From a virus (Duplodnaviria; Heunggongvirae; Uroviricota; Caudoviricetes): 64,000 nucleotides of DNA. Both the position numbers and the translations under genes were made by a program. Below are positions 1,534 to 63,390 of this stretch, piece after piece. Where the stretch lies: IMG/VR virus record IMGVR_UViG_3300029736_000004. One strand, written 5' to 3'. The first letter of the stretch is position 1. Every line of letters begins with the position of its first letter. The notes below the pieces were generated by a model that searched no databases, was not told the origin of the DNA, and saw only the letters and a program-made list of their open reading frames with translations.

Positions 1534-1721
1534 GGTTCGCCTTTACGGCATACAGCTACACGGTCATTTCTTACATTAACCACTGTCACCGTTCCGTCAT
1601 CACATTGAATAACGATGAAAGGGTGTTCATTCTCTTTTGTGCAATGTTGCTGTTCTCCAGCCATTGCAGCCGGAGGAGCAAATAGCGCCAGAACAAATGC
1701 CAACCTTAAAAAATGCTTCAT
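1512..1721 (-). CDS. small secreted protein (signal peptide, Cys-containing)
   Basis: N-terminal hydrophobic signal MKHFLRLAFVLALFAPPAAMA followed by Cys-containing mature region. Confidence 0.45.
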   Translation of the reverse strand: MKHFLRLAFVLALFAPPAAMAGEQQHCTKENEHPFIVIQCDDGTVTVVNVRNDRVAVCRKGEPCKEIKL

Positions 1722-1728
1722 TTGGCCT

Positions 1729-1780
1729 TATCCGTTATCAAAATTGGAATATCCGTTATCACGAGCGTGATATCCGTTAT
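1729..1780. repeat. three direct repeats of (A)TATCCGTTAT at about 21-bp spacing
   Basis: Copies at 1729-1738, 1749-1759, 1770-1780, immediately upstream of the 1512..1721 gene start. Confidence 0.6.
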
Positions 1781-1962
1781 GAAGGGGGTAATAAAATTAC
1801 TTAGTAATACCCTCCTCCAGACTGAACGCCAGCGATAACCCAGGCTGCAAGAAGCGTAAATCCACTCCCAGCTTCACATTCAAGCGTTCCCCATTCAACA
1901 CCACCAGCCAACAAAACAAATAACAAACAAAAAAGTAATCCAAAATTTCTTTCTGTTTTTCA

Positions 1963-2262
1963 TTATGGTTGACTCCAGTTATCTTCAATAACAATGCTCA
2001 ATCTTTGTAGCCATTCTGCTAACTTCAGCATTGCTTCTCTTTCGCTTAAACCACGAGGGAAATCATCAAGCGATATTGTTGGCTTGAAATTCCCGAAATT
2101 ATCCATTTCAACGGTCAGATTTTGCTCCAGCACGGTATTCCTTACGCGGCTATTGTGCCGGAGCAAATATACTGAGCGCGATTTATTGGTTTTGTGGTCT
2201 AGCTTATATTCGGTAAGTATCATATGGCTTCTGCCATGATTATTACCGCGCCACATAATCAC
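1963..2262 (-). CDS. hypothetical protein (99 aa)
   Basis: ORF only; fits minus-strand gene series. Confidence 0.3.
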   Translation of the reverse strand: MIMWRGNNHGRSHMILTEYKLDHKTNKSRSVYLLRHNSRVRNTVLEQNLTVEMDNFGNFKPTISLDDFPRGLSEREAMLKLAEWLQRLSIVIEDNWSQP

Positions 2263-2268
2263 TCCGTG

Positions 2269-2670
2269 TTAATAAGAAAAGTAGACCGTTGCGACTCTGT
2301 TATATTGATCGAACGAAATAGCATTTACTTCATAGCTGGTGGGTATCTTTTCGCCAAGAATGTAACCAGGCCATGATTTCCACGGAATTTCTGCTCGTTC
2401 GTCATGCCACACTGCGCAACCAAGAGAACCGACCGTCTCTCCATACCGTTTTCCGCAAGTAACAAAGCCTATATTTGGCTTATCTTGCGTGACTGCTACA
2501 GTGGTAGTATTTGCGGATGCATTGATTGCAGTGCGTTGCTCCTGCTCGCTTGCGGCTGAGGCGCTAATTGCTGCCGTTGTTGCGGCGGTTGCAACAATAA
2601 CCGATGCATGTGATAAATGGCAGGCAGATAACATTGCCAGAAAAATAATAGTTCTCCGAAATTTAGCCAT
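2269..2670 (-). CDS. putative lipoprotein
   Basis: Start chosen at MAKFRR with AAAGGG RBS; signal peptide with LSAC lipobox-like motif. Confidence 0.45.
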   Translation of the reverse strand: MAKFRRTIIFLAMLSACHLSHASVIVATAATTAAISASAASEQEQRTAINASANTTTVAVTQDKPNIGFVTCGKRYGETVGSLGCAVWHDERAEIPWKSWPGYILGEKIPTSYEVNAISFDQYNRVATVYFSY

Positions 2671-2846
2671 TGATTTACCCTTTATTGCGAACATATTTAG
2701 CTGTGTGTTGCCGATGCGCGGAGATTCTCTTATATCAATTCCACGCGCTCTGCTAACGAGCAATCCAAATAATCATCCGGATGCTTGTCGGTGTTATTAA
2801 TGATGCGAATCCTCAAATCTTTTCACCTTTGAGGATAAGTTGCAGG

Positions 2847-3893
2847 TTAGCCACGGTTAACTCCTTGCTGTGTGGCGTCGAGTAATAAATCCCACAACCG
2901 CTGAGAGCAATTTCCGCATGTACAGCGTTGACCCACAACGTTTATCGCGTTGCTGATTTCCGGCGTTACCTGTTTAGGAACCATAACCCAACCATCCGGA
3001 GTTACCGGAAGCGAGAACGGCAGCACATCTCTGTGAACAAGTTTTTGCTGTGACAGGTTATCCAGAACTTTCTGTACTGCTGCATCACCGAATACACCAA
3101 GCGCATCTGCCATAACTCCTACAACCTGATAAGCCTCAGCGCATACCGTGGATAAACCATCCGGAATTACCGGAGAGTTGCCTGCCAGTCTACGCAAAAC
3201 AGTCTTAACCGCCTCAATACGGTCATCATCGCAACTTTCCAGCGTATCTATGCGATCGAGCATGATGATGGCGTTATCAATATCAGGATTGCCGGTCCAC
3301 TCATTACCGCGATTGGATTCGGCAGCCTGGTTGCCGCGTACTGGTTGATTCTCGGCTTTACCCTGTCTGTCGTCGCTGCATGAATGCCCTTCCAGCCAGA
3401 CCAGTGCTTGTCGCATGAAATACGCAATATGCTTGCCGTGGTAATCGTCTTCATCGATGTGAAAAGCGATACTGCGGATATATTCAATTGCGTTTTCAAT
3501 GGCCTCCGGCGTTATCGGTGCTGACATATTTTTATTTTGGAGTGCCAAGACGCGGCTGGCATCCTCTACGCCTTTAACTGCATCTGCGCAGTAGTTATAG
3601 CGATTGCATTCCACTAACTTCTGCTTGAGATTTTCAATTGCTTGTGCGACATCAGCCTGCAATTCCGGAACTGGCGGAGTGGCATATAACGGCACCCACT
3701 TTGGTGCTTTATCCCCGACCGAACGCTGATACCAGTCACCCGGTTTGTATTCATAAAAATCACCAACTGGCTCTGCTTCCAGAGATGCCAGCGCAATTTC
3801 ATAAGCACGGCGCTCAATATTGTCTCGCACGTCCAGACTGCCTATGCGCTCTTTGATTTCTTTAATCAGTTCTTTGTCGGTTAAAGTGGTCAT
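2847..3893 (-). CDS. hypothetical phage protein (348 aa)
   Basis: Long ORF, C-terminal CTCGNC motif; no confident family assignment. Confidence 0.5.
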   Translation of the reverse strand: MTTLTDKELIKEIKERIGSLDVRDNIERRAYEIALASLEAEPVGDFYEYKPGDWYQRSVGDKAPKWVPLYATPPVPELQADVAQAIENLKQKLVECNRYNYCADAVKGVEDASRVLALQNKNMSAPITPEAIENAIEYIRSIAFHIDEDDYHGKHIAYFMRQALVWLEGHSCSDDRQGKAENQPVRGNQAAESNRGNEWTGNPDIDNAIIMLDRIDTLESCDDDRIEAVKTVLRRLAGNSPVIPDGLSTVCAEAYQVVGVMADALGVFGDAAVQKVLDNLSQQKLVHRDVLPFSLPVTPDGWVMVPKQVTPEISNAINVVGQRCTCGNCSQRLWDLLLDATQQGVNRG

Positions 3894-7044: not shown

Positions 7045-8040
7045 TCAGTTATTGAACGTGATCACTCCGCGCTCGATGGCGAAGTCGAAAAGCTGGTTGG
7101 CGGCTACGTAAAGGCGTATGCCATGTGCTTTTTCCCATGCCCGGACATCGTTTTCTGCGCTTCTGGCGCATTCATCGCAAAGAGGAACGGCCCAGCGATC
7201 GTGTTCGTTTAACGAGCGGGCGCGGTACATGAACGGGTGATTAACTTTGCCTCCGCATCCGATGCACGGACGAGAAATCACAAACCGGAGATAAGCCGGG
7301 CTTTTACCGAGAACCGCTTTTGGTCGGCGCATATACAGCAGGCCGGAATCCTCATCTACAGACAGGTTGACGATCTGCTCTGCGGTTATGTCCACCAGCT
7401 CACGGGTGCTGTGCTCCCAGGTGATATCCGATTCTTTCAGTGTGCCGGTAGGGATTTCCTGTTTTGGCTGACAAAATGCAATGCGACCGGCTTCATCTGG
7501 CAGCTCGTCTTTCAGATTCCGGCGAATGGCCCAAAAAGTGAGTTCAACCATGCTCAGATCGCGTTCTGGCGGTAGTTTTAACTCGCTCGCAGCCCAGTTC
7601 ATAACCCAGTTGGCACGATTCAGGGATAACTGGTCATCCAGCTTGCCGTACCCCTTCATCATGTATTCCGCATCATGCTTCCAGCACAGGCGAACGGCAG
7701 AGCCGTTATAGAAATGAGTGGTTAGCTGGTGGCTGCAATCGCGCTTATCGTGCGCCTGGCAATCGTGGATATTGGAACTTACCCAATGAACAAGCGAATC
7801 TTCACCGCCTAATGCGTTAAATACGCGCTCGCTTTGAAAAAATGCTTTCAGAGACTGGTTGGCAACCAGCGAATAGTTCAGATCCACTACGCCATCTGGC
7901 GTGTTTTCAGCCTGTTCGCGCGGAAGTGGAGAGATAATGAAACGGCGACCTGCGCCAATGTAGTTGCTGGTGGGCTTGTCTACCGGAAAGACAGCCACAC
8001 CAGCTCCGTTTACGAAATGAGGTGTGATTATTGCACTCAT
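7045..8040 (-). CDS. prophage protein with C-terminal Cys-rich HNH-like motif (YdfU/DUF968-like)
   Basis: C-terminal CIGCGG ... HPFMYRARSLNEHDRWAVPLCDEC pattern. Confidence 0.45.
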   Translation of the reverse strand: MSAIITPHFVNGAGVAVFPVDKPTSNYIGAGRRFIISPLPREQAENTPDGVVDLNYSLVANQSLKAFFQSERVFNALGGEDSLVHWVSSNIHDCQAHDKRDCSHQLTTHFYNGSAVRLCWKHDAEYMMKGYGKLDDQLSLNRANWVMNWAASELKLPPERDLSMVELTFWAIRRNLKDELPDEAGRIAFCQPKQEIPTGTLKESDITWEHSTRELVDITAEQIVNLSVDEDSGLLYMRRPKAVLGKSPAYLRFVISRPCIGCGGKVNHPFMYRARSLNEHDRWAVPLCDECARSAENDVRAWEKAHGIRLYVAANQLFDFAIERGVITFNN

Positions 8041-27209: not shown

Positions 27210-27497
27210 TCATTTTGTATCCTCAGACTCTGCAAGCATGAGGATAGCATGGCGGATCATATTCAATTTGCTGCGATTATGCTTTTTGCTTAACGCATCA
27301 AGTACCTGGTACTCGTATTCATTGAAGCCAACACGAATGGATTTAAAATCACGTGGGGCGTCCTTATCGAGCACTTTGTTGTCTTCTGGTTGCTCACCCG
27401 GCACCAAATCAGCTTTGCTGGCAAAAGCCTCAATTCGGCGTTCAAGATCGAGGTCTTTTACTTCGGGGGCTTTTACCGATTTACGAGGCTTAATCAC
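27210..27497 (-). CDS. ParG-like ribbon-helix-helix partition protein
   Basis: Small protein directly downstream of the ParA gene; C-terminal beta-strand/helix pattern IRVGFNEYEYQVLDALSKKHNRSKLNMIRHAIL. Confidence 0.5.
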   Translation of the reverse strand: MIKPRKSVKAPEVKDLDLERRIEAFASKADLVPGEQPEDNKVLDKDAPRDFKSIRVGFNEYEYQVLDALSKKHNRSKLNMIRHAILMLAESEDTK

Positions 27498-28131
27498 TTA
27501 ATAACTCCTTAACCAACATCTGGATTTCACCTTTAGCTTTCCCGTTGTCCATCTCAACAACGCCCTTCCCTTCAGCCATACAATCGCGGTAAACCTTGCG
27601 ATCGCGAATGATGGTTTTCAGCAACTTCAGTTGCGGATATTCAGCAAGGTACTCTTTGGCCTCATTGGCTTCATTCACAACCGGATTGGATGGGGCCATT
27701 GTTAAGACTGCGCACGCCTTAATGCTAGGATTAGGCATCAGATCCAAAGCCTCTTCAAAGACTTCAACAAAATGCGCCAGCGTGTCTAAATCTGGCTGAG
27801 ATGGCCTGAATGGAACAAGCAAAACATCCGCCGCAGTAATACCGGTGCGCATCTCTTTGCTATCACGACCAGCGGTATCAACAACCACAAATTCATAACG
27901 CTTGTCCAGATCAAGAAGTGTTTCACGAATATTCCCAAACTTCTGGACGCAATGAATTACTGGAGAAACCTCTGCCGCATTACGGTCCGATGCCCAACGG
28001 GCAGATGTTCCTTGCTTATCTGCATCAAGTAGAACTACGTCCTTATTTGCGCGGGCAAGCTCCGCACAAATGTTTACGCTGGTGGTTGATTTGCCACAGC
28101 CACCTTTTTGGCTGGCTACCAATATAATCAT
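27490..28131 (-). CDS. parA: ParA-family partition ATPase (small type Ib, ParF-like)
   Basis: Deviant Walker A KGGCGKST near N-terminus; 213 aa. Confidence 0.85.
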   Translation of the reverse strand: MIILVASQKGGCGKSTTSVNICAELARANKDVVLLDADKQGTSARWASDRNAAEVSPVIHCVQKFGNIRETLLDLDKRYEFVVVDTAGRDSKEMRTGITAADVLLVPFRPSQPDLDTLAHFVEVFEEALDLMPNPSIKACAVLTMAPSNPVVNEANEAKEYLAEYPQLKLLKTIIRDRKVYRDCMAEGKGVVEMDNGKAKGEIQMLVKELLSD

Positions 28132-28139
28132 ATCCGTTC

Positions 28140-28375
28140 CTCGGTGTTATTTTGGTATCAAAATGGTTCCAAACAGAAGCCTTATTGATGCGGTTTTGGC
28201 TCTATAGTGGAGTCACTATGCTTTGCAAAAGTATAACACTAAACACTCTAAATTTGCCCTCTGTTGCATCCTGTTTAACACGAAATCAGCCTCAAAGTGG
28301 AACCAGACACAAAACAGCACCATAACAACACCGTTTTGGTACTAAAAGAACACCAAATTAGAACCATAACAGTAT
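28140..28375. repeat. repeat cluster upstream of the ParA gene (candidate centromere/operator)
   Basis: GGTGTTATTTTGGTATCAAAATGGTTCCAAA and CACCGTTTTGGTACTAAAAGAACACCAAA related units. Confidence 0.45.
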
Positions 28376-28400
28376 AAAAAAGGCTGCAAATTGCAGCCTT
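28375..28400 (-). terminator. intrinsic terminator after parR (minus strand)
   Basis: Perfect palindrome AGGCTGCAA-A-TTGCAGCCT followed on the minus strand by TTTTTAT. Confidence 0.5.
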
Positions 28401-28416
28401 TGAAGATGTAGATTTG

Positions 28417-28782
28417 TTAATCAGGGAGTGAGTTTGCCAAATTCTGTGCAGAGCGGCTTTTCGAAACGCCAGGTTTTTTAACATCCGCTGAGGCAGAGGG
28501 GTTTCCTTCAGGGTTTTCCCGAACTTCAGGCGAAATTTCAAGAAATGAAACCAGCATTTTTCTGATCACTTCAGGGCTATTATCACCGGATAAAAGCGAT
28601 GCCAACATGGGAGGTAATCTGCTATCAACCTCGCCAAGAGCGATACCTGCAAGCATCGCTGTGCGCGCCATATCATTGCGATCTCTTAATGGATGGCCCT
28701 CAAGTTTTGCATCAGCATATTGCTCACTGGCGTTAAGACCAGGACGAAGATAAAACAATACTTTTCGACGTTCCTGAGACAT
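28417..28782 (-). CDS. parR: ParR (StbB-like) centromere-binding protein
   Basis: Resembles R1 ParR (RKVLFYLRPGLNASEQYADAKL...RTAMLAGIAL); directly downstream of parM. Confidence 0.7.
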   Translation of the reverse strand: MSQERRKVLFYLRPGLNASEQYADAKLEGHPLRDRNDMARTAMLAGIALGEVDSRLPPMLASLLSGDNSPEVIRKMLVSFLEISPEVRENPEGNPSASADVKKPGVSKSRSAQNLANSLPD

Positions 28783-28792
28783 GGCAACCTCA

Positions 28793-29752
28793 TCAACCGA
28801 TAGATTTTAGACCATAGACAAGAGCAAGTTGTGGATCATCAGCAACGAAAAACCTATCGTCACGAATGTTTACCTGCTCACGGATAGCATCAGCAACAAG
28901 CGGCGCGCCGCCACCAATGACCATAACATGCGTGTATCCTTTGAAATCACTGATCACATCCAGTACGCGTGTACGGAGTCGTTCTATGCTTGACGAAATG
29001 GCTTTCTTAACATCATCAATAGCAGACGGATCGTTAATATTGTCGGTCAAATAATCCTCATCATCACGATTAATGATTAATTGATCGACATTATAATTAG
29101 AGGTTTCGGTATTCGCTTTTGCAAGTGCCTGTCTGACCTCTTTAGTTACCAGCGAAACGCCGAGATTAGAATCGCCAAATACGCGAGAAACGGCGGTCAT
29201 TTGCCCGGCGACCATCGACACATCCAGAGTAGTCCCACCAAGATCAACAATAAGCACAGAATGCGCTGGCACAAGGCTGTCGCACAGACCGATCCCTGCG
29301 GGTATTGACTCCGGGCGCACAGTCACTTTTTTGATAGTAAAAACCTGACCTTTGTTAAGGGTGACTGGTCGCATCAGGCTGGCCTTTTTCCGCTCAATAT
29401 TTTTCATGTTGTATTGTGCGTCGTCGTCATAAAACTCTGCCAGTGGCAACGTGACAACTATTTCCACTTCTTGAGGCTCAATGCCACTTGTAAGCAGGGC
29501 ATGATGAACAGCAAGCACATTAAGCGGGCTGTATTGCCATTCAACGTTATTCGTCGGCAGCACATCCGGCGAGATCAAGTCATATGAATATTTTTCGTCA
29601 TCAATGATGTAGTTAAACGGCTTTCCTGCGCCAAATGTGGCGGACCATCCACGTTTAAAACTGTTCGGACAGATATGGGTTCGAGTTTCCCCGTCTTGTT
29701 CCCACAGCATTTTGATATTGGTAGAACCATCGTCGATAAAAATGCGCATCAT
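28793..29752 (-). CDS. parM: ParM (StbA) actin-like segregation ATPase
   Basis: MMRIFIDDGSTNIK...NSFKRGW...AVHHALLTSG matches R1 ParM; start at ATG with GGAG RBS. Confidence 0.85.
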   Translation of the reverse strand: MMRIFIDDGSTNIKMLWEQDGETRTHICPNSFKRGWSATFGAGKPFNYIIDDEKYSYDLISPDVLPTNNVEWQYSPLNVLAVHHALLTSGIEPQEVEIVVTLPLAEFYDDDAQYNMKNIERKKASLMRPVTLNKGQVFTIKKVTVRPESIPAGIGLCDSLVPAHSVLIVDLGGTTLDVSMVAGQMTAVSRVFGDSNLGVSLVTKEVRQALAKANTETSNYNVDQLIINRDDEDYLTDNINDPSAIDDVKKAISSSIERLRTRVLDVISDFKGYTHVMVIGGGAPLVADAIREQVNIRDDRFFVADDPQLALVYGLKSIG

Positions 29753-38600: not shown

Positions 38601-39152
38601 ATGACACCTTCTGAACTATTAGAAAGCGTTAAAGCGCGATTCAATCCTCTTCTTGTACGGGAAGAGGAGACACTGAAAGCATTCCTGATCAAAGCATTGA
38701 CTACTTACCAGGACAGAGCGGGAGTAGTGAAGGCATTAAAGCTGGAGAAAGCAGACGGTACGGCGATCCCTGTTCCGGATGATTATCTGTCTCTGGTCCA
38801 CGTCACTGACCACAACGGACTTCTGGTTTACGCCGACGAGATTGCCGGTTTTGTCGAACTTGAGCTTACCGGTTCTGAACGCTGGCCTTTCAAGATGCAA
38901 TACCTTGTAAATCTCCGCGATCGCAACCTGGATGAGTGGCAAGTTCCACCTGCGATTATCGGAATGCTTGAGGAATATCTTGAAGCACTAATCAATGTCC
39001 GCAACGTTGCCCGCCAGCGAAGGGCGTCAATTGATGGCAAGTTTGATTACTCCGATCTTCCTGATGAGGCGACGCTCTACGCGCGTGTTCAGGAGATAGA
39101 AGAAAAAATGGCAGCCAACCGGGCCATTATCCCTGGTGCCACCATTTTTTAA
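38601..39152 (+). CDS. hypothetical tail/virion protein
   Basis: ORF in structural block. Confidence 0.4.
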   Translation: MTPSELLESVKARFNPLLVREEETLKAFLIKALTTYQDRAGVVKALKLEKADGTAIPVPDDYLSLVHVTDHNGLLVYADEIAGFVELELTGSERWPFKMQYLVNLRDRNLDEWQVPPAIIGMLEEYLEALINVRNVARQRRASIDGKFDYSDLPDEATLYARVQEIEEKMAANRAIIPGATIF

Positions 39153-39165
39153 CACGGAGGGCTAC

Positions 39166-39873
39166 GTGAGTATTTTTAGTGCTACAACGCAAACGCTAGC
39201 CAGTGCGGTATCGTTTAGCGCGAAATCGTTCACCAGCAACCTTATCAGCGACATTCTGGATAGAGCGGTGTCTGGCAGTGGCGTTAGTGGGAGCTACGGC
39301 AATGACATCGCTTACGGAAAGAACGTAGTTGCTACGGCTATGCGTATCCGCTATGCCCAGGGCTGGCAGTGGACGGTAGACGTAGACGGATTAAGCGGCT
39401 TTGATATGTTCGTTAAGGACATCACTTACAGTAGCGGGAATATTGAAACAGAAAGCAAAATCATTGGTAGCGTCGAGTTCAATAAGCCAACGCACGTAAC
39501 CGCCGGACCGGTAACAATGACGGTCAGAGACACAGAAGACGGCAAAATAATGAATTGGTTCAAGGAGCGCCGCGCCCGTGTAACCAATAGCGATGGTACG
39601 CTAAACCTGCCGCCAGATTATCTCATGAATATCAGGCTATACCGCGTTACACAGGAAGGCGGGAAAGAGCTGGAAGAGGAAATGCGTGTATTTCCGACTC
39701 AGATAGGAGAGATCAGCCGCTCACGTGATCAGGTGTCCGAATTCTTGTCCTATCCGATCACGTTCCAGCGATACACATCTGCTGGTTCCGGCCTGTCCGC
39801 ATTAGTCAATGGAGCTGCTGGTTTAGCAACAAGCGCACTTAAAAGCGCCGCCAGCAACGTGATCAAGTTTTGA
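39166..39873 (+). CDS. hypothetical tail/virion protein
   Basis: GTG start with GAGG RBS; ORF in structural block. Confidence 0.4.
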   Translation: MSIFSATTQTLASAVSFSAKSFTSNLISDILDRAVSGSGVSGSYGNDIAYGKNVVATAMRIRYAQGWQWTVDVDGLSGFDMFVKDITYSSGNIETESKIIGSVEFNKPTHVTAGPVTMTVRDTEDGKIMNWFKERRARVTNSDGTLNLPPDYLMNIRLYRVTQEGGKELEEEMRVFPTQIGEISRSRDQVSEFLSYPITFQRYTSAGSGLSALVNGAAGLATSALKSAASNVIKF

Positions 39874-39914
39874 AATGCAATATTAAAGTGCGAGAAGGAG
39901 AGGAAAGGACAAAC

Positions 39915-40208
39915 TTGAGGGCAATTTTTACACCAGCTATTTACACCAGTGATGGCATTTTTTACACACCACAACAAAATCAATGAGTTACATTCAAAAA
40001 ACACTTAACAGGTGTGCTATAAAAATAGCTATAACATACGATGCTATCTGAGGGTGATTTTTACACATTACTTATTAATCAATAAATTACAAATGATGTT
40101 AGCCGTTAAAGCTCCAACCAACTCACTAATGGTGTAAGAATTGCCCTCAATCTCCCATCTTTAAGGGCAAATCCTACACCTACAGAGAGGTGTAGAAATT
40201 GCCCTTAA
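39915..40208. repeat. RepA iterons, downstream array (incA-like)
   Basis: TTGAGGGCAATTTTTACACC-type 19-20 bp units in both orientations (39915, 40049, 40131, 40161, 40189). Confidence 0.6.
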
Positions 40209-40993
40209 GACTGCTGATAGGTGAATTTTATTTTTGTAACTCTGCCACCTTCTGTAACCTCTGAGAAAACTATTTTCATTTTTGTGTTTTTTTCGATTTC
40301 AGCTACAGCTTTTGCCAGAAAGCTTCTCTTAAATTCGGCGTACCGTTGATAGCTTTTGGGAAGACCATAACGCTCCCGCATCCATTCAACGCCAAGTATA
40401 GCGAAGCCGCTCCCATCATCCTTTCTATACTGGCATAAGGACTCATAAAGCCGCATAGAATAAGGGTTTGTCAGGCGAGACACTTCAGTAAAATTCAGCC
40501 TCGTGAACCTCTTATCAAGCAGAGTAAAAAACGGCATGAGATATGGATTCAGATGAATAATGTAAGTCCCCCGGCGTGGTGAGTAAGCATCCTTAATCAT
40601 CCAGGGATAAGACTCATAACTGTCTTCTGATTCGGTTGATTCATCAGGGTTATATATCGTGACTTTCTTCTCACTAAGTCCGGAGATAGCTTTACGAATA
40701 TCCTTGCTGGCTTCAGCAGAGGGCAAATTATACATCTCTGCATATTCGTTGACCGTCAACTCACAGGCTCCTGAACCAAGAACGCCATCCTTAGAAGCAT
40801 AGCGAAGTCTTCCCACCACAATAAACAACAGTCGCTTTTGGTCGCGTGTCAGGTGATAAGCCGCCTCTGTGATCTCATTGGCCTGCGCCAAGCTACGGCT
40901 AATTGGTGTCGCTGATTCAATCAGACTGACGGCTTTTGCCGTTAATTCCGCTCTGTTCATAACCCTGTGTGATCCTTCAAATGGTGAGGGCAA
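40205..40993 (-). CDS. repA: iteron-binding plasmid replication initiator RepA (Rep_3-like)
   Basis: C-terminal NPYSMRLYESLCQY...GLPKSYQRYAEFKRSFL pattern typical of Rep_3 initiators; flanked by iterons. Confidence 0.75.
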   Translation of the reverse strand: MPSPFEGSHRVMNRAELTAKAVSLIESATPISRSLAQANEITEAAYHLTRDQKRLLFIVVGRLRYASKDGVLGSGACELTVNEYAEMYNLPSAEASKDIRKAISGLSEKKVTIYNPDESTESEDSYESYPWMIKDAYSPRRGTYIIHLNPYLMPFFTLLDKRFTRLNFTEVSRLTNPYSMRLYESLCQYRKDDGSGFAILGVEWMRERYGLPKSYQRYAEFKRSFLAKAVAEIEKNTKMKIVFSEVTEGGRVTKIKFTYQQS

Positions 40994-41340
40994 TTTTTAC
41001 ATCACTTTGAGGGCAATTACTACACCTTTTGAGGGCAAATCTTACACCTGCTGAGGGCAAATCTTACACCTCAATAGCTTAATTGAGGGCAAATCTTACA
41101 CCTTGGTCCTCTACAAGCCCCGCCACACCTGACCTCCGCGATGCCTAAAAAGGATCTAAAAAGGATTAAAAAGAGAAAAAGGTTTATAAAAATACTCTGT
41201 GGATATGTGAATTGCGTCACTTAAGGTGTAAAAATCACCCTCAATAGTTGCTGTTCGATCGACAAAGATCCTTATTCAATACTCCCACAAATCACACACT
41301 CCCTATCCTCTGAAAAACTAACTGAACCTAGCTTTCGGAG
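40984..41340. repeat. origin region: five direct iterons plus DnaA-box-like site, GATC sites and AT-rich tract
   Basis: Iterons at 40984, 41007, 41029, 41051, 41084 (22-23 bp phasing) and inverted copy at 41225; TGTGGATAT at about 41198; AT-rich AAAAAGGATCTAAAAAGGATTAAAAAG. Confidence 0.6.
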
Positions 41341-41346
41341 GAATCC

Positions 41347-42171
41347 TTGAACATTCCCAAATTCCCATTGCCTTCACAGCCTGAAATGGAAATTCAGTTT
41401 CATGCACCTACTGTGAAAGATGCCCTGAAATATTCAGACATCAATCCGGCAGAAGACGAGGCAACCACAACAGAATACCTCAATGCCATGCAAGACGGCG
41501 AAATTAACGACAGCTCAAACTGGACAGTTCAGGATCGCAGAACCGCACTTTGGTGGATCTTTGTCAATTCCAGACCAGATGCCGTAATGACTTACTCATA
41601 CGAGTGTGGTCACTGTGGAAGCGTTCATCACGCAGATATTAACCTTTCCGACCTTGCCGAAACGGTAGAAATCCTGACTGTTCCGCCGTTTATTAAAACT
41701 ATGGTCCCAATAAACGGAGTACCAACCGAGTGGACGCTTAAACCACTAACAGGGAAAGGCGCTGAATTGCTTGAGCGTATGCGCGCCACTCTGCCTGATA
41801 TGAAAACTCCAGAGTACAGTGCTAAGGTTGCTCGTCTCCGCATAGCTGAGTTGGCCTTGTGTACATCTCTGAACGACGATCCAGAAGACTTCACACAAGC
41901 TGCAAACAGACGATTCGATATCATTGAAAACATGGCACTGGAAACCGAGTTTACCCCTCTGGTAGCTCGCATTCAGCTCATGCAGAAAGACCTTCGCCAC
42001 GGCTTAAAAATGGCTATTGAACGAGGCACAAGCCGCCTGATCCTACCGCCACAACGTTGCAAAAACGCTAAGGAGGGTGCAGACGTGACTACCACGCTGT
42101 ACGCCCCATTTCTCAATAGAGAGTTTATCCCATCAATTAGATCTGAATGGATGGCTAACCATTATCAATAA
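41347..42171 (+). CDS. hypothetical protein (274 aa)
   Basis: ORF adjacent to origin; contains CGHCG motif. Confidence 0.4.
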   Translation: MNIPKFPLPSQPEMEIQFHAPTVKDALKYSDINPAEDEATTTEYLNAMQDGEINDSSNWTVQDRRTALWWIFVNSRPDAVMTYSYECGHCGSVHHADINLSDLAETVEILTVPPFIKTMVPINGVPTEWTLKPLTGKGAELLERMRATLPDMKTPEYSAKVARLRIAELALCTSLNDDPEDFTQAANRRFDIIENMALETEFTPLVARIQLMQKDLRHGLKMAIERGTSRLILPPQRCKNAKEGADVTTTLYAPFLNREFIPSIRSEWMANHYQ

Positions 42172-48790: not shown

Positions 48791-48861
48791 AAGACCACTG
48801 GAAATCACAAACTGAACATACTGCCCTTCGATTTATTGCTTGTTAAAGGGGCTATGTTCGT

Positions 48862-52982: not shown

Positions 52983-53374
52983 TAGTGAGTGCTTTTGTGA
53001 CCTTTTTTAGTAATACAATCCTTTGGTACAAAAAAGCCGCCGTCCAGTCAATGACGGCGGGCAAAATGAACACTCAGTTAGTGGTATCTGAGAGGGGGGC
53101 ATTATATTCACTGAATGACGCTTGTGAAGACTCACATGTCATCATTTTGTCCTCAAGAATCAGCTCACATCTTGCGCATTCAAGCGTATTTCTCTTTAAA
53201 GCCGTGTTTGGACCATTTTGTTGATACGCGAATTTGGCATCCTCCACGCTCTGAGTGACGAGGTTTACGGACCACCGGGCCATCATATGCATCCATTTTG
53301 TGTGAATGGCATTTAGTCGGGAAATAACAAACTGGATAAGTTGAAGCCGCGTTAAACGTCATTTCTGGAGGGGT

Positions 53375-57068: not shown

Positions 57069-57159
57069 AAGAGAGGGGCAGAATGCCCCTTTCTTCTTAA
57101 AATAGTCACCGAAATAACACACTTTTTACACTGCCTTTTTTACAGAAAGGTGGTTAATT

Positions 57160-59302: not shown

Positions 59303-59534
59303 AAGTTTCCTTATGCAATTTATCCATCATGGGCGATAAGAATAGTAACACAAAAGATATAAAACACAACAAAAATGTTTATAAACATAACTTCCTTGTT
59401 TGGTGGTTGCGTTTTTGGAAAAGCATTTCCGCATATGAAAAAACATCAGCATATGGTGAAAACAACGAAAAATTACTGATGAAATCACACACTGGATAAG
59501 CTGCCACGAAATCGGAAACCTTTTGCGGTGAATC

Positions 59535-62430: not shown

Positions 62431-63390
62431 GTGAGTATTTTAAATTCAGTTTCAGTAACTTTCAACACTTCTGAGTATAAAAACAACACTGAATACCACA
62501 AAAAAATCAAAGGTCATCAGTTGAGTTTTTTTGCTCGTCATAGCGGTTTTCTTTCCCCTTCACATAGCGCCATTATTGCCGAGTTCGCCAACCTGGCAGG
62601 AGCTACCGATGAATACATGATCCGTCGCTCATATGCTGATATGTCCGAGATTACAGGACGCAGTATTTCTACTGTGCGCCGGGCATTTACCGAAGCGACG
62701 AAGTGCGGAATGCTTGTTAAGCAGCATCAGGTAGCGAATAACAATGCTCAGGTGTGTAACGTGTACCGGTTTACAACACAATTTCTCCACTTCATTCATG
62801 TAGCAATGGAGATAGGGAGTAAGCAGGGCATCAAATTTGCCAACGCCACAAAACTGGTTAAGCAGTTGATTTCAAAGGTTCGTTATTTTTTTGAAACTGG
62901 GAACCCCCTGTTCAAATTGAACAAGTCCCCCCATGTTCAAAATGAACAGCCAATAGAAAATAAGAGTCACTCTATAGCCAAAAGAAGAGAAAGATCATGC
63001 GCGGTTCAGCCAAAGGCTTCACCAGCAGATAGTTCTCAAGCGGATAATGGCTTGCTGGATAAAAAAACAGTAATCAGGGAAGAACATACCAACCACTGCC
63101 TGGCGGCAGCAAAAGCGAGAGCTGCAAAGCGTCGTTCAGACGAGGGGTACGCAAAACGGCAGGCTCTGTATCGTACCGCTGAAAAACTGGCAAAAAAATT
63201 TGCATGGTTACGTAGTGCTACCACAGTGAATAAGCCCAAACGATCCAGCGCCCTGGATTTCTCTATGGATTATTCTGCTTCCCAGGGATGTGCAACCATC
63301 AATGAAGCATTTGACCTGATGAAACAGCGTGGCTATCGGTCTGAATTTGACCGGGAAGACTGGTCAATTCCGGAGGGCTTTCGGGGATGA
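62431..63390 (+). CDS. HTH-containing protein, possibly RepL-like lytic replication initiator
   Basis: EITGRSISTVRRAFTEATKCGML HTH; preceded by 10-bp inverted repeat GTATAAATCT/AGATTTATAC (62376-62403); start uncertain. Confidence 0.3.
   Translation: MSILNSVSVTFNTSEYKNNTEYHKKIKGHQLSFFARHSGFLSPSHSAIIAEFANLAGATDEYMIRRSYADMSEITGRSISTVRRAFTEATKCGMLVKQHQVANNNAQVCNVYRFTTQFLHFIHVAMEIGSKQGIKFANATKLVKQLISKVRYFFETGNPLFKLNKSPHVQNEQPIENKSHSIAKRRERSCAVQPKASPADSSQADNGLLDKKTVIREEHTNHCLAAAKARAAKRRSDEGYAKRQALYRTAEKLAKKFAWLRSATTVNKPKRSSALDFSMDYSASQGCATINEAFDLMKQRGYRSEFDREDWSIPEGFRG

Follow-up and report, generated by a model that had tools for sequence, protein, structure and literature searches.

A predicted RepE-lineage maintenance replicon in the tail gene region of a D6-like phage-plasmid

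Gene and repeat organization of the locus

The window, which is the whole 64,000-nucleotide (64-kb) stretch of viral DNA analysed here, contains a slot between the stop codon of a tub (tail tube) homologue and the start of a pmgB homologue (39874-41346). This slot holds a minus-strand gene, repA, with short direct and inverted repeats on both of its sides (Table 1). A location amid tail genes had been stated in the original prediction, and it was borne out by the neighbours. The tub homologue on the left is syntenic with orf43 of phage D6, annotated as 'similar to P1 gene tub'; the pmgB homologue on the right has its annotated counterpart in D6 orf41 and is followed by a sit (tape-measure-like) gene.

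A candidate late promoter of the D6 type for pmgB-sit lies at the right end of the slot. Its box was matched five times in the window, against 0.02 matches expected, and all five are on the plus strand. Four of the matches were checked, and each was located just 5′ of a late-gene ORF. Homologous sites occur in D6, and a near-identical core is retained in a plasmid that carries a P1-type replicon in the slot. These results suggest that 41289-41309 acts as a late promoter. The late-promoter pattern of P1 (AARTGACTW-N4-TANAAT) had no match in the window.

Table 1. Features of the tub-pmgB region, in window coordinates
Feature	Coordinates	Strand	Remarks
tub (tail tube) homologue	39136..39873	+	43% identity to P1 Tub; left slot boundary at its stop codon
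Downstream iteron D1	39916..39933	+	TGAGGGCAATTTTTACAC; 0 mismatches to pattern
Downstream iteron D2, degenerate	39950..39967	+	2 mismatches
Downstream iteron D3	40049..40066	+	TGAGGGTGATTTTTACAC
Downstream iteron D4	40132..40149	-	0 mismatches
Downstream iteron D5	40162..40179	+	pattern match
Downstream iteron D6	40190..40207	-	pattern match; begins with TAA, the repA stop codon
repA, Rep_3 (WH1+WH2) initiator, RepE lineage	40205..40960	-	251 aa from ATG
Intragenic iteron-like site, weaker	40718..40735	+	3 mismatches; inside repA
Origin iteron O1	40985..41002	+	24 nt from repA ATG
Origin iteron O2	41008..41025	+	pattern match; position conserved
Origin iteron O3	41030..41047	+	pattern match; position conserved
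Origin iteron O4	41052..41069	+	pattern match; position conserved
Origin iteron O5	41084..41101	+	32 bp from O4; position conserved
G+C-rich spacer, iterons to AT-rich tract	41102..41136	.	37% A+T
AT-rich tract, candidate DNA-unwinding element	41137..41189	-	repeated CCTTTTTAG / TTTTTAGATCC units
DnaA box	41190..41198	-	TGTGGATAT / ATATCCACA; 8/9 to consensus TTATCCACA
Inverted iteron, far side of DnaA box	41226..41243	-	kept in all D6-like loci
Candidate D6-type late promoter, pmgB-sit	41289..41309	+	AAATCACACACT-CCC-TATCCT; right slot boundary
pmgB homologue	41347..42171	+	41% identity to P1 PmgB; first gene past the slot

The repeats were searched with the pattern TGAGGGCAAWTYTTACAC, allowing up to three mismatches. 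All 13 matches in the 64-kb window fell within 39916-41243; 0.35 were expected by chance, and shuffled controls never reached 13. The repeats are 18-20 bp long and are present on both sides of the minus-strand rep gene. The start-to-start spacing of the five origin copies is 23, 22, 22 and 32 bp, so that four of them stand in 22-bp phase and the fifth lies one turn further out. The five direct upstream iterons of the original prediction were recovered, with its 22-bp phasing in four of them. The second cluster, in mixed orientation, was found downstream as predicted, with six copies in 39916-40207.

When D6-like loci were compared, the position of iteron D1 was unchanged in every checked locus that retains this segment, and D2 stood out as a conserved island amid diverged spacers. 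D3 and the inverted origin copy at 41226-41243 share an identical variant sequence (inverted repeat I2). Relative to the rep gene, D4 has the orientation of the incC repeats in the F sequence. D5 and the iteron D6 (a repeat, not the phage) pair up as an inverted repeat of 21 bp (I13), whose arms are 6 nt apart and 90% complementary. An iteron at or adjoining the rep stop codon is also present in a Pantoea plasmid, in the loci L016, L018 and L020, and in F incC. A regulatory RNA was considered and rejected: an Rfam scan of 39700-41500 with E up to 1 gave no support for one, and merely returned sub-threshold microRNA-type matches that were caused by the inverted iteron pair.

The weaker site inside repA corresponds to the coding-strand codons ATG TAT AAT TTG CCC TCT. 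These codons are kept in relatives of 57-72% protein identity, while nearby synonymous sites vary; among the compared relatives, F and L016 do not have the site.

Both the AT-rich tract and the DnaA-box-like sequence named in the original prediction were confirmed. The A+T content of 41137-41189 is 69.8%, compared with 52.4% for the whole window, and 47 of its 53 columns are invariant in the D6-type family. The DnaA box is invariant within this family, and a box is found at the equivalent place in F (two boxes), L016, L018, L020 and the Pantoea plasmid. The GATC sites, on the other hand, did not hold up as an origin feature. Five of them occur in the 1473-nt cassette, where they are as dense as in the window overall (3.5 per kb), and the AT-rich tract contains just one. 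At this background density, the locus lacks the Dam/GATC feature that P1 oriR has.

The segment 40974-41023 is invariant across six family members. On its minus strand, O1 contains TGtAAAAAT, which we tentatively regard as a possible extended -10 element of the repA promoter. This putative element is poorly kept in distant relatives. A sigma-70 consensus scan of 39800-41450 gave no promoter on the repA strand, and its sole plus-strand match was below chance expectation.

RepA and its conservation

The gene had been called a Rep_3-like initiator, and the profile search agreed well with this call. RepA matched Pfam PF01051 (Rep3_N) at 4.5e-29 (102.1 bits; gathering cut-off 22.4) and PF21205 (Rep3_C) at 3e-15 (56.7 bits; gathering cut-off 21.1). 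It is 98.8% identical to D6 orf42 and 100% identical to one RefSeq plasmid protein. The identity to F RepE is 50% over 228 aa (E 3e-86), and the best PDB match is likewise RepE (chains at E about 1e-73), for which a RepE-iteron structure has been solved. The protein misses the equivalog cut-off for RepE sensu stricto (NCBIfam NF010305, IncFIA), with 281 bits against 342, while F RepE itself scores 537.8 bits. RepA being below this cut-off, the regulatory details of F may not carry over, and the monomer/dimer switch, chaperone dependence and operator binding of F RepE may not apply to RepA. The residue matching RepE R118 is Asp. Identity to RepE is lower in WH2 (41%) than in WH1 (54%), and the stronger divergence of WH2 fits the report that WH2 reads the GTG/TGAC end (PMC4980987).

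Selection on the cassette was estimated from alignments of D6-type loci. Among six loci, the dN/dS of repA was 0.008-0.028 at dS 0.24-1.05, and the WH1 region was 99-100% identical. Invariant columns made up 90.6% of the iterons versus 46% of the spacers (Fisher p 1.7e-30), and 90% of the AT-rich tract and DnaA box taken together. The position of 13/13 iteron sites was held in eight intact D6-like loci. This pattern of selection, as read from the alignments, supports a replicon function. A sliding-window test for synonymous constraint in repA showed just a mild dip at 40724-40823, which was unconvincing beyond the intragenic iteron-like site. In PLSDB, only one record fell in the 60-80% band of RepA identity.

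Comparison with mini-F

By sequence comparison, the closest characterised homologue of the RepA replicon is mini-F, not P1. The ori2 of mini-F could be aligned with the window colinearly at the nucleotide level, from the DnaA box through the AT-rich tract, with its TTTTTAGATC unit, and the G+C spacer to the iterons. Within this alignment, the AT-rich tract of the window corresponds to the AT-rich region of ori2 and its 13-mer, which in mini-F likewise contains GATC, and the G+C spacer corresponds to its counterpart in ori2 and in relatives. The order of DnaA box, AT-rich tract with 13-mer and direct iterons upstream of rep is thus that of mini-F, as is a second iteron cluster immediately 3′ of rep. 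The architecture of F and the role of incC have been described (PMC13028717; PMC4980987). The F iterons are at 22-bp phase and in the same orientation. One iteron half, TTGCCCTCA, is common to the window and the F iteron TGTGACAAATTGCCCTCAG, whereas the other half is unlike that of F (GGTGTAAGAT vs TGTGACAAA) and the repeat of the window is 1 bp longer. In both replicons, the iteron that comes first after rep touches or overlaps the stop codon, and a downstream control cluster is present.

Several differences from mini-F were also seen. Mini-F has an inverted-repeat operator and a promoter between the iterons and rep, and the window is without this insert of roughly 45 nt. Instead, a fifth origin iteron sits at the place of the F operator, 24 nt from the ATG. 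The window has one DnaA box and F has two, and the inverted iteron beyond the DnaA box is extra in the window. The downstream cluster consists of six sites in mixed orientation, compared with five in one orientation in F. Unlike in mini-F, sopABC is not adjacent to the replicon.

Relationship to D6-like phage-plasmids

The window is part of a D6-like, P1-related phage-plasmid and is syntenic with D6 throughout. With RepA near-identical to D6 orf42 and encoded between tub and pmgB, the locus belongs to the D6-like group (rep_cluster_1704). The element is already known as the annotated plasmid-maintenance replicon of this group: orf42 of D6 (NC_050154) is annotated as a replication initiation protein (pfam01051), and repB of pYU39_89, a D6-like plasmid prophage, has been described as associated with iteron sequences (PMC6799933). 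D6 and D6-like plasmids have the same 13 iteron positions, DnaA box, AT-rich tract and tub-pmgB location. Over the segment bounded by the tub stop and the pmgB start, D6 and the window share about 84% DNA identity; the far-left 330 nt of the segment was not found by megablast. After tub, D6 has a stretch of about 50 nt with two P1-type iterons, which the subgroup of the window does not have. This subgroup includes the E. marmotae and E. coli plasmids CP099353 and CP104667. The original prediction considered the place of the replicon unusual. Relative to P1, in which tub and pmgB are adjacent, it is so; the tub-pmgB gap is, however, the standard replicon place in D6 and about 110 D6-like plasmids.

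D6-like elements exist as circular plasmids with a size of about 90 kb. The window covers 64 kb of such an element of roughly 90 kb, so that this molecule may carry a second replicon elsewhere, and contains one RepE-like gene only. Homologues of P1 RepA, ParA/ParB and SopA were not found in the 64-kb window, and its partition genes, at 27.5-29.7 kb, are ParM/StbA-like. A RepL-like lytic replicon at 62431-63390 has 95% identity to D6 RepL. In the literature searched, which did not take in the D6 genome paper (2018), no published experiment on this replicon was found. The PlasmidFinder type 'p0111' is not the D6 replicon; it denotes an alternative repA of P1-like elements, located at the P1 position. 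A 36-kb record bearing the replicon is not evidence of a natural mini-plasmid, because it is a linear, incomplete contig and thus uninformative.

Proposed function and alternatives

Taken together, we consider that 39874-41346 is, with a probability of about 0.88, a low-copy theta-type iteron-controlled maintenance replicon of the RepE lineage belonging to a D6-like phage-plasmid. Binding of RepA to the iterons, firing of the origin, autoregulation and control of copy number are predicted here. By mini-F homology, RepA monomers would bind the five direct iterons (40985-41101) and host DnaA the box at 41190-41198; RepA and DnaA would then open the AT-rich tract, where the host replisome would be loaded. 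Because repA starts 24 nt from an iteron and the F-type operator insert is missing, its promoter would have to overlap the iteron array, and, as in P1, autorepression by bound RepA is expected. The six downstream iterons would act like incC/incA and titrate RepA. Their pairing with the origin iterons, by handcuffing or looping, would hold the copy number down and set incompatibility.

The cassette might instead be a decayed or non-essential remnant, or a mere incompatibility determinant, with maintenance provided by another origin (outside the window or repL). Exchange of replicons clearly occurs in the slot and leaves relics, such as the two P1-type iterons of D6, and a second replicon (IncY or IncFIA) is typed in some D6-like plasmids. 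However, repA is an intact ORF on which purifying selection is very strong (dN/dS 0.01-0.03), and the conservation of the iterons, DnaA box and AT-rich tract contrasts with the divergence of the spacers. Moreover, the complete annotation of D6 lists orf42 and repL as its only replication initiators, leaving no other of plasmid type, and MOB-suite types most D6-like elements with rep_cluster_1704, the RepE-like replicon, alone. We therefore regard the remnant reading as improbable.

A role mainly in lytic or early phage replication rather than in prophage maintenance, reflected in the place within the late tail operon, is also quite improbable. Such a role would suit a cassette that lies among virion genes and adjoins a candidate late promoter, but a second control cluster makes an iteron replicon copy-limiting by design (PMC13028717), and a RepL-type lytic replicon is present in the window. 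In addition, repA is antisense to the late genes, and in related elements and ordinary plasmids the same cassette is located apart from virion genes.

Comparison with P1 and replicon exchange in the slot

The original prediction matched the locus to the oriR/incC-repA-incA arrangement of P1, while noting that the iteron is not that of P1. The match holds for the layout only. Both P1 and the window have five origin iterons that reach almost to the rep start, which places the promoter within the iterons, and both have a downstream cluster in mixed orientation. By homology, the replicon is of the mini-F type. The 19-bp P1 iteron type (GATGTGTGCTGGAGGGAAA) had 0 matches within three mismatches in the whole window, in line with the note on the iteron. 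Pairwise comparison of RepA with P1 RepA gave nothing significant (best BLASTP E 0.056), and tblastn of P1 RepA against the window gave no match. P1 has five annotated GATC sites and the slot variant L022 has four, compared with the single site in the AT-rich tract of the window. The P1 replicon itself adjoins parAB and gene 23. A diverged P1-type (IncY) oriR/repA/incA replicon, for which the gross layout (five iterons abutting rep, DnaA box, AT-rich tract, mixed cluster), the relatedness of the element to P1 and a genuine P1-type replicon in the same slot of a few D6-like plasmids could be cited, is thus extremely improbable, being refuted at the level of sequence homology by the absent P1 RepA similarity, P1 iterons and GATC cluster and by the clear homology of RepA and the origin to F RepE and ori2.

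The genuine P1-type occupant is found in the E. coli plasmid pE2863-2 (NZ_AP018804; rep_cluster_2221), a D6-like element with the same tub/pmgB flanks and slot boundaries. Its cassette encodes a RepA 84% identical to P1 RepA and has P1-type iterons, four GATC repeats and a consensus DnaA box. P1-type cassettes occupy the slot in about 5 records versus about 110 with the RepE-like cassette. Comparison of the two occupants shows that whole iteron replicons of unrelated specificity, RepE-like and P1/IncY-like (pE2863-2), have replaced each other in this slot, and D6 has kept two P1-type iterons from such a swap. We suggest, with considerable doubt, that the gap from the tub stop to the late promoter is a dedicated dock for exchangeable replicons in D6-like phage-plasmids. 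Speculatively, a swap would switch the incompatibility group with the virion genes untouched, and leftover foreign iterons could serve as decoys against competing IncY phage-plasmids and make these unstable. With the cassette lying antisense within the late operon, it may further be speculated that late transcription could shut down plasmid-mode replication during lytic growth.

As a discovery the replicon carries little weight, the gene being annotated in D6 and RefSeq plasmids and the replicon having its own MOB-suite cluster. Its practical value comes from the common occurrence of D6-like phage-plasmids in E. coli, Shigella and Salmonella. The kinship with mini-F and the defined iterons allow predictions on incompatibility, copy control and curing constructs made from the downstream cluster, and cross-talk with RepFIA plasmids is possible through the common iteron half. 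The slot also illustrates how a phage-plasmid may change its incompatibility group by cassette exchange.

More distant relatives, with RepA 57-79% identical, were found in Pantoea sp. At-9b pPAT9B03, Nissabacter CP028040 and the metagenomic P1/D6-like contigs L016 and L018. All have the same origin plan and the stop-codon iteron, and most have the intragenic iteron-like site. Their genomic positions differ from the D6 slot: the Pantoea and Nissabacter replicons are on ordinary plasmids, the L016 cassette is surrounded by accessory genes, with higBA and a darB-like gene nearby, and that of L018 is upstream of gene 23 (77% identity to P1 gp23). In L016, P1-type and RepE-type iterons are interleaved in tandem units.

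Relationship of the replicon to mini-F

RepA, the initiator encoded in the window, matched Pfam Rep3_N and Rep3_C well over threshold in a profile search, in agreement with the Rep_3-like initiator proposed at the outset. Among solved structures, RepE chains (RepE being the initiator of plasmid F; E ~1e-73) gave by far the best matches, with R6K pi and pPS10 RepA far behind. In pairwise comparison RepA was 50% identical to plasmid F RepE over 228 residues (E 3e-86), and no significant similarity to P1 RepA was found (best E 0.056); P1 RepA itself is a marginal Rep_3 member. RepA scored 281 bits against the NCBI RepE equivalog cut-off of 342. RepA lies within the RepE lineage, yet is not RepE or IncFIA proper.

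The predicted layout of an initiator gene flanked by iterons, with an AT-rich tract, a DnaA box and a mixed downstream cluster, was borne out by direct reading of the sequence. The iteron consensus TGAGGGCAAWTYTTACAC was found 13 times in the 64-kb window (≤3 mismatches; 0.35 expected from shuffles), and all copies lie within 39916-41243. The TAA stop codon of repA sits inside the nearest downstream iteron. GATC sites, also listed as an origin feature, carried no signal, because five sites in 1473 nt is only the window average.

Features of the replicon and candidate late-promoter motifs in the window
Feature	Position	Strand	Remarks
repA ORF	40205-40960	-	251 aa from ATG; between two + strand tail genes
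Origin iterons (n=5, direct)	starts 40985, 41008, 41030, 41052, 41084		upstream of repA; start-to-start spacing 23, 22, 22, 32 bp
G+C-rich spacer			between the five origin iterons and the AT-rich tract
AT-rich tract	41137-41189		69.8% A+T (window overall, 52.4%)
DnaA box	41190-41198		ATATCCACA as read on the repA strand
Single inverted iteron	41226-41243		far side of the DnaA box
Downstream iterons (n=6, mixed orientation)	39916-40207		past the repA end
Intragenic iteron copy	40718-40735		within repA; weaker
AAATMACAMACT-N3-YANNCT sites	41289-41309, 48802-48822, 53322-53342, 57112-57132, 59482-59502	+	

In the F sequence a pair of DnaA boxes comes first, followed by an AT-rich tract whose 13-mer contains GATC, four iterons of 19 bp (TGTGACAAATTGCCCTCAG), the promoter/operator, repE and incC, the last being five iterons that begin right behind the repE stop codon. 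The roles of these parts have been summarised (PMC13028717; PMC4980987). Read in the repA direction, the window origin gave a nucleotide alignment with F ori2 that took in the DnaA box, both the TATTTTTATAA and the CCTTTTTAG stretch, the G+C spacer and the iterons. One iteron half, TTGCCCTCA, is common to both, whereas the other is GGTGTAAGAT in the window and TGTGACAAA in F, and the window repeat is one base longer. RepA and RepE were 54% identical in WH1 and 41% in WH2. In F, WH2 reportedly recognises the GTG/TGAC end of the iteron (PMC4980987), and its greater divergence is in line with the differing iteron half. The original reading as an iteron replicon was essentially right; by homology the replicon is of mini-F type and not of P1 type.

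F carries an insert of ~45 nt with the promoter and an inverted-repeat operator, which is missing in the window; the fifth iteron occupies the operator position, 24 nt from the repA ATG. It follows that the repA promoter has to share sequence with the iteron array, as it does in P1 according to the P1 annotation. A consensus scan found no repA promoter, and TGtAAAAAT in the proximal iteron is tentatively put forward as a promoter element. The pair of iterons closest to the repA stop makes up a near-perfect inverted repeat of 21 bp, its arms spaced by 6 nt (40161-40208), which gave rise to spurious microRNA-like Rfam matches. No T-run follows this repeat on either strand, so that it does not qualify as a typical terminator; RepA dimers could use it as a site.

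Conservation of the replicon

Conservation was measured in six D6-type loci with ≤19% divergence between the stop of tub and the start of pmgB. Across these loci repA showed dS of 0.24-1.05 with just 4-5 amino-acid changes (dN/dS 0.008-0.028). Among non-coding columns, 193/213 were invariant in iterons versus 193/418 in spacers (Fisher p 1.7e-30), and only 29% in the downstream spacers; in the AT-rich tract and DnaA box the count was 56/62. All 13 iteron sites were positionally kept in 8/8 intact loci. Remoter RepA relatives (57-79% identity), found on Pantoea and Nissabacter plasmids and metagenomic P1/D6-like contigs, have the same replicon plan, including the iteron at the rep stop codon. 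Homology and conservation together suggest that the cassette would direct replication, autoregulation and copy control.

The intragenic site encodes MYNLPS of the WH1 helix-turn-helix region. In relatives at 57-72% protein identity its codons (ATG TAT AAT TTG CCC TCx) are kept and the synonymous sites around it vary. It is a possible thirteenth functional site for RepA. It is absent in F and in the metagenomic contig L016.

The host element and the tub-pmgB slot

The segment matched Escherichia phage D6 and ~110 plasmids of Escherichia, Shigella and Salmonella, which are circular, non-mobilizable and ~90 kb in size; the best matches were E. marmotae and E. coli plasmids (98-99.8%). D6 is syntenic with most of the window at 74-97% DNA identity. 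RepA shares 98.8% identity with D6 orf42 and 100% with a RefSeq plasmid protein, and MOB-suite typed the replicon as rep_cluster_1704. The D6 record describes the counterpart, between tub and pmgB, as 'replication initiation protein; similar to P1 gene repA?; pfam01051'. The cassette is already annotated as a replication gene, and is hence a known feature with little new.

No homologues of P1 RepA, ParA/ParB or SopA were found in the window. Partition genes lie at 27493-29749 (-) and encode a ParM/StbA-like protein (94% identical to D6 orf58), a small partner and a short ParA-like ATPase. P1 and F link partition genes to the replicon, whereas those of the window are unlinked, ~10.5 kb from repA. 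A RepL-type lytic replication gene (62431-63390, +) lies 21 kb from repA; its product is 95% identical to that of D6 and 28% to P1 RepL.

The location had been considered unusual, but elements of the D6 group normally house their replicon in this slot between tub and pmgB. P1 keeps its plasmid replicon beside parAB and gene 23, and its tub and pmgB lie side by side. A genuine P1-type replicon fills precisely the D6-group slot in E. coli pE2863-2 and a few similar D6-like plasmids (~5 PLSDB records, versus ~110 with the RepE-like cassette). In pE2863-2 (1608-3056) it is complete: its RepA shares 84% identity with P1 RepA, and it has five P1-type origin iterons, four GATC repeats, a consensus DnaA box (TGTGGATAA) and mixed downstream iterons. 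Its presence shows that replicon exchange has taken place at the slot. D6 has an inverted pair of P1-type RepA iterons, TATGTGTGCTGGAGGGTTG ctca TTTCCCGTCAGCACCCACG, right behind the tub stop (7704-7745) near its RepE-like replicon, where the P1-type cassette begins in the slot. The pair is also present in close relatives of D6 (L009-L012); it is absent from the window, from L002 and from L014, and the window's subgroup lacks the stretch. It appears to be left over from a P1-type replicon that was replaced.

At the right slot edge a conserved motif, AAATCACACACT-N3-TATCCT, was found. The window has five copies of the form AAATMACAMACT-N3-YANNCT (0.02 expected). Of these, the four that were checked precede late-gene ORFs (pmgB, R-like, ddrB-like, portal-like) by up to ~60 nt, and the fifth (53322) is 53 nt upstream of ORF 53375, taken to be a lydA/holin homologue. 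Homologous sites are present in D6, one upstream of mat. The motif has P1 late-promoter architecture, but its -22 box differs, and the exact P1 pattern had zero matches in the window. The five sites are probably Lpa-dependent late promoters of the D6 group, and the slot-edge copy is interpreted as one that would restore pmgB-sit expression downstream of the antisense cassette.

Variant and relocated replicons

In the E. coli plasmid NZ_CP127005 (L010, 2570-3030) only three origin iterons are left and an IS5 element replaces pmgB. It was typed IncY plus rep_cluster_1704, so that damage to the D6-type origin goes together with a second replicon. NZ_CP091837 (L009) was typed IncFIA plus rep_cluster_1704, which may reflect a second replicon or cross-matching.

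Further P1/D6-like elements have related RepE-like cassettes elsewhere: that of L016 is close to higBA and a darB-like gene, and that of the contig L018 lies upstream of a gene with 77% identity to P1 gene 23. In the contigs L016/L017 (5660-5720, 6800-7290) the RepE-like replicon, whose RepA is 79% identical to that of the window, has P1-type iteron-like 17-mers on both flanks. Downstream, these 17-mers are interleaved with RepE-type iterons in tandem units of ~180 bp, forming a control region of two specificities.
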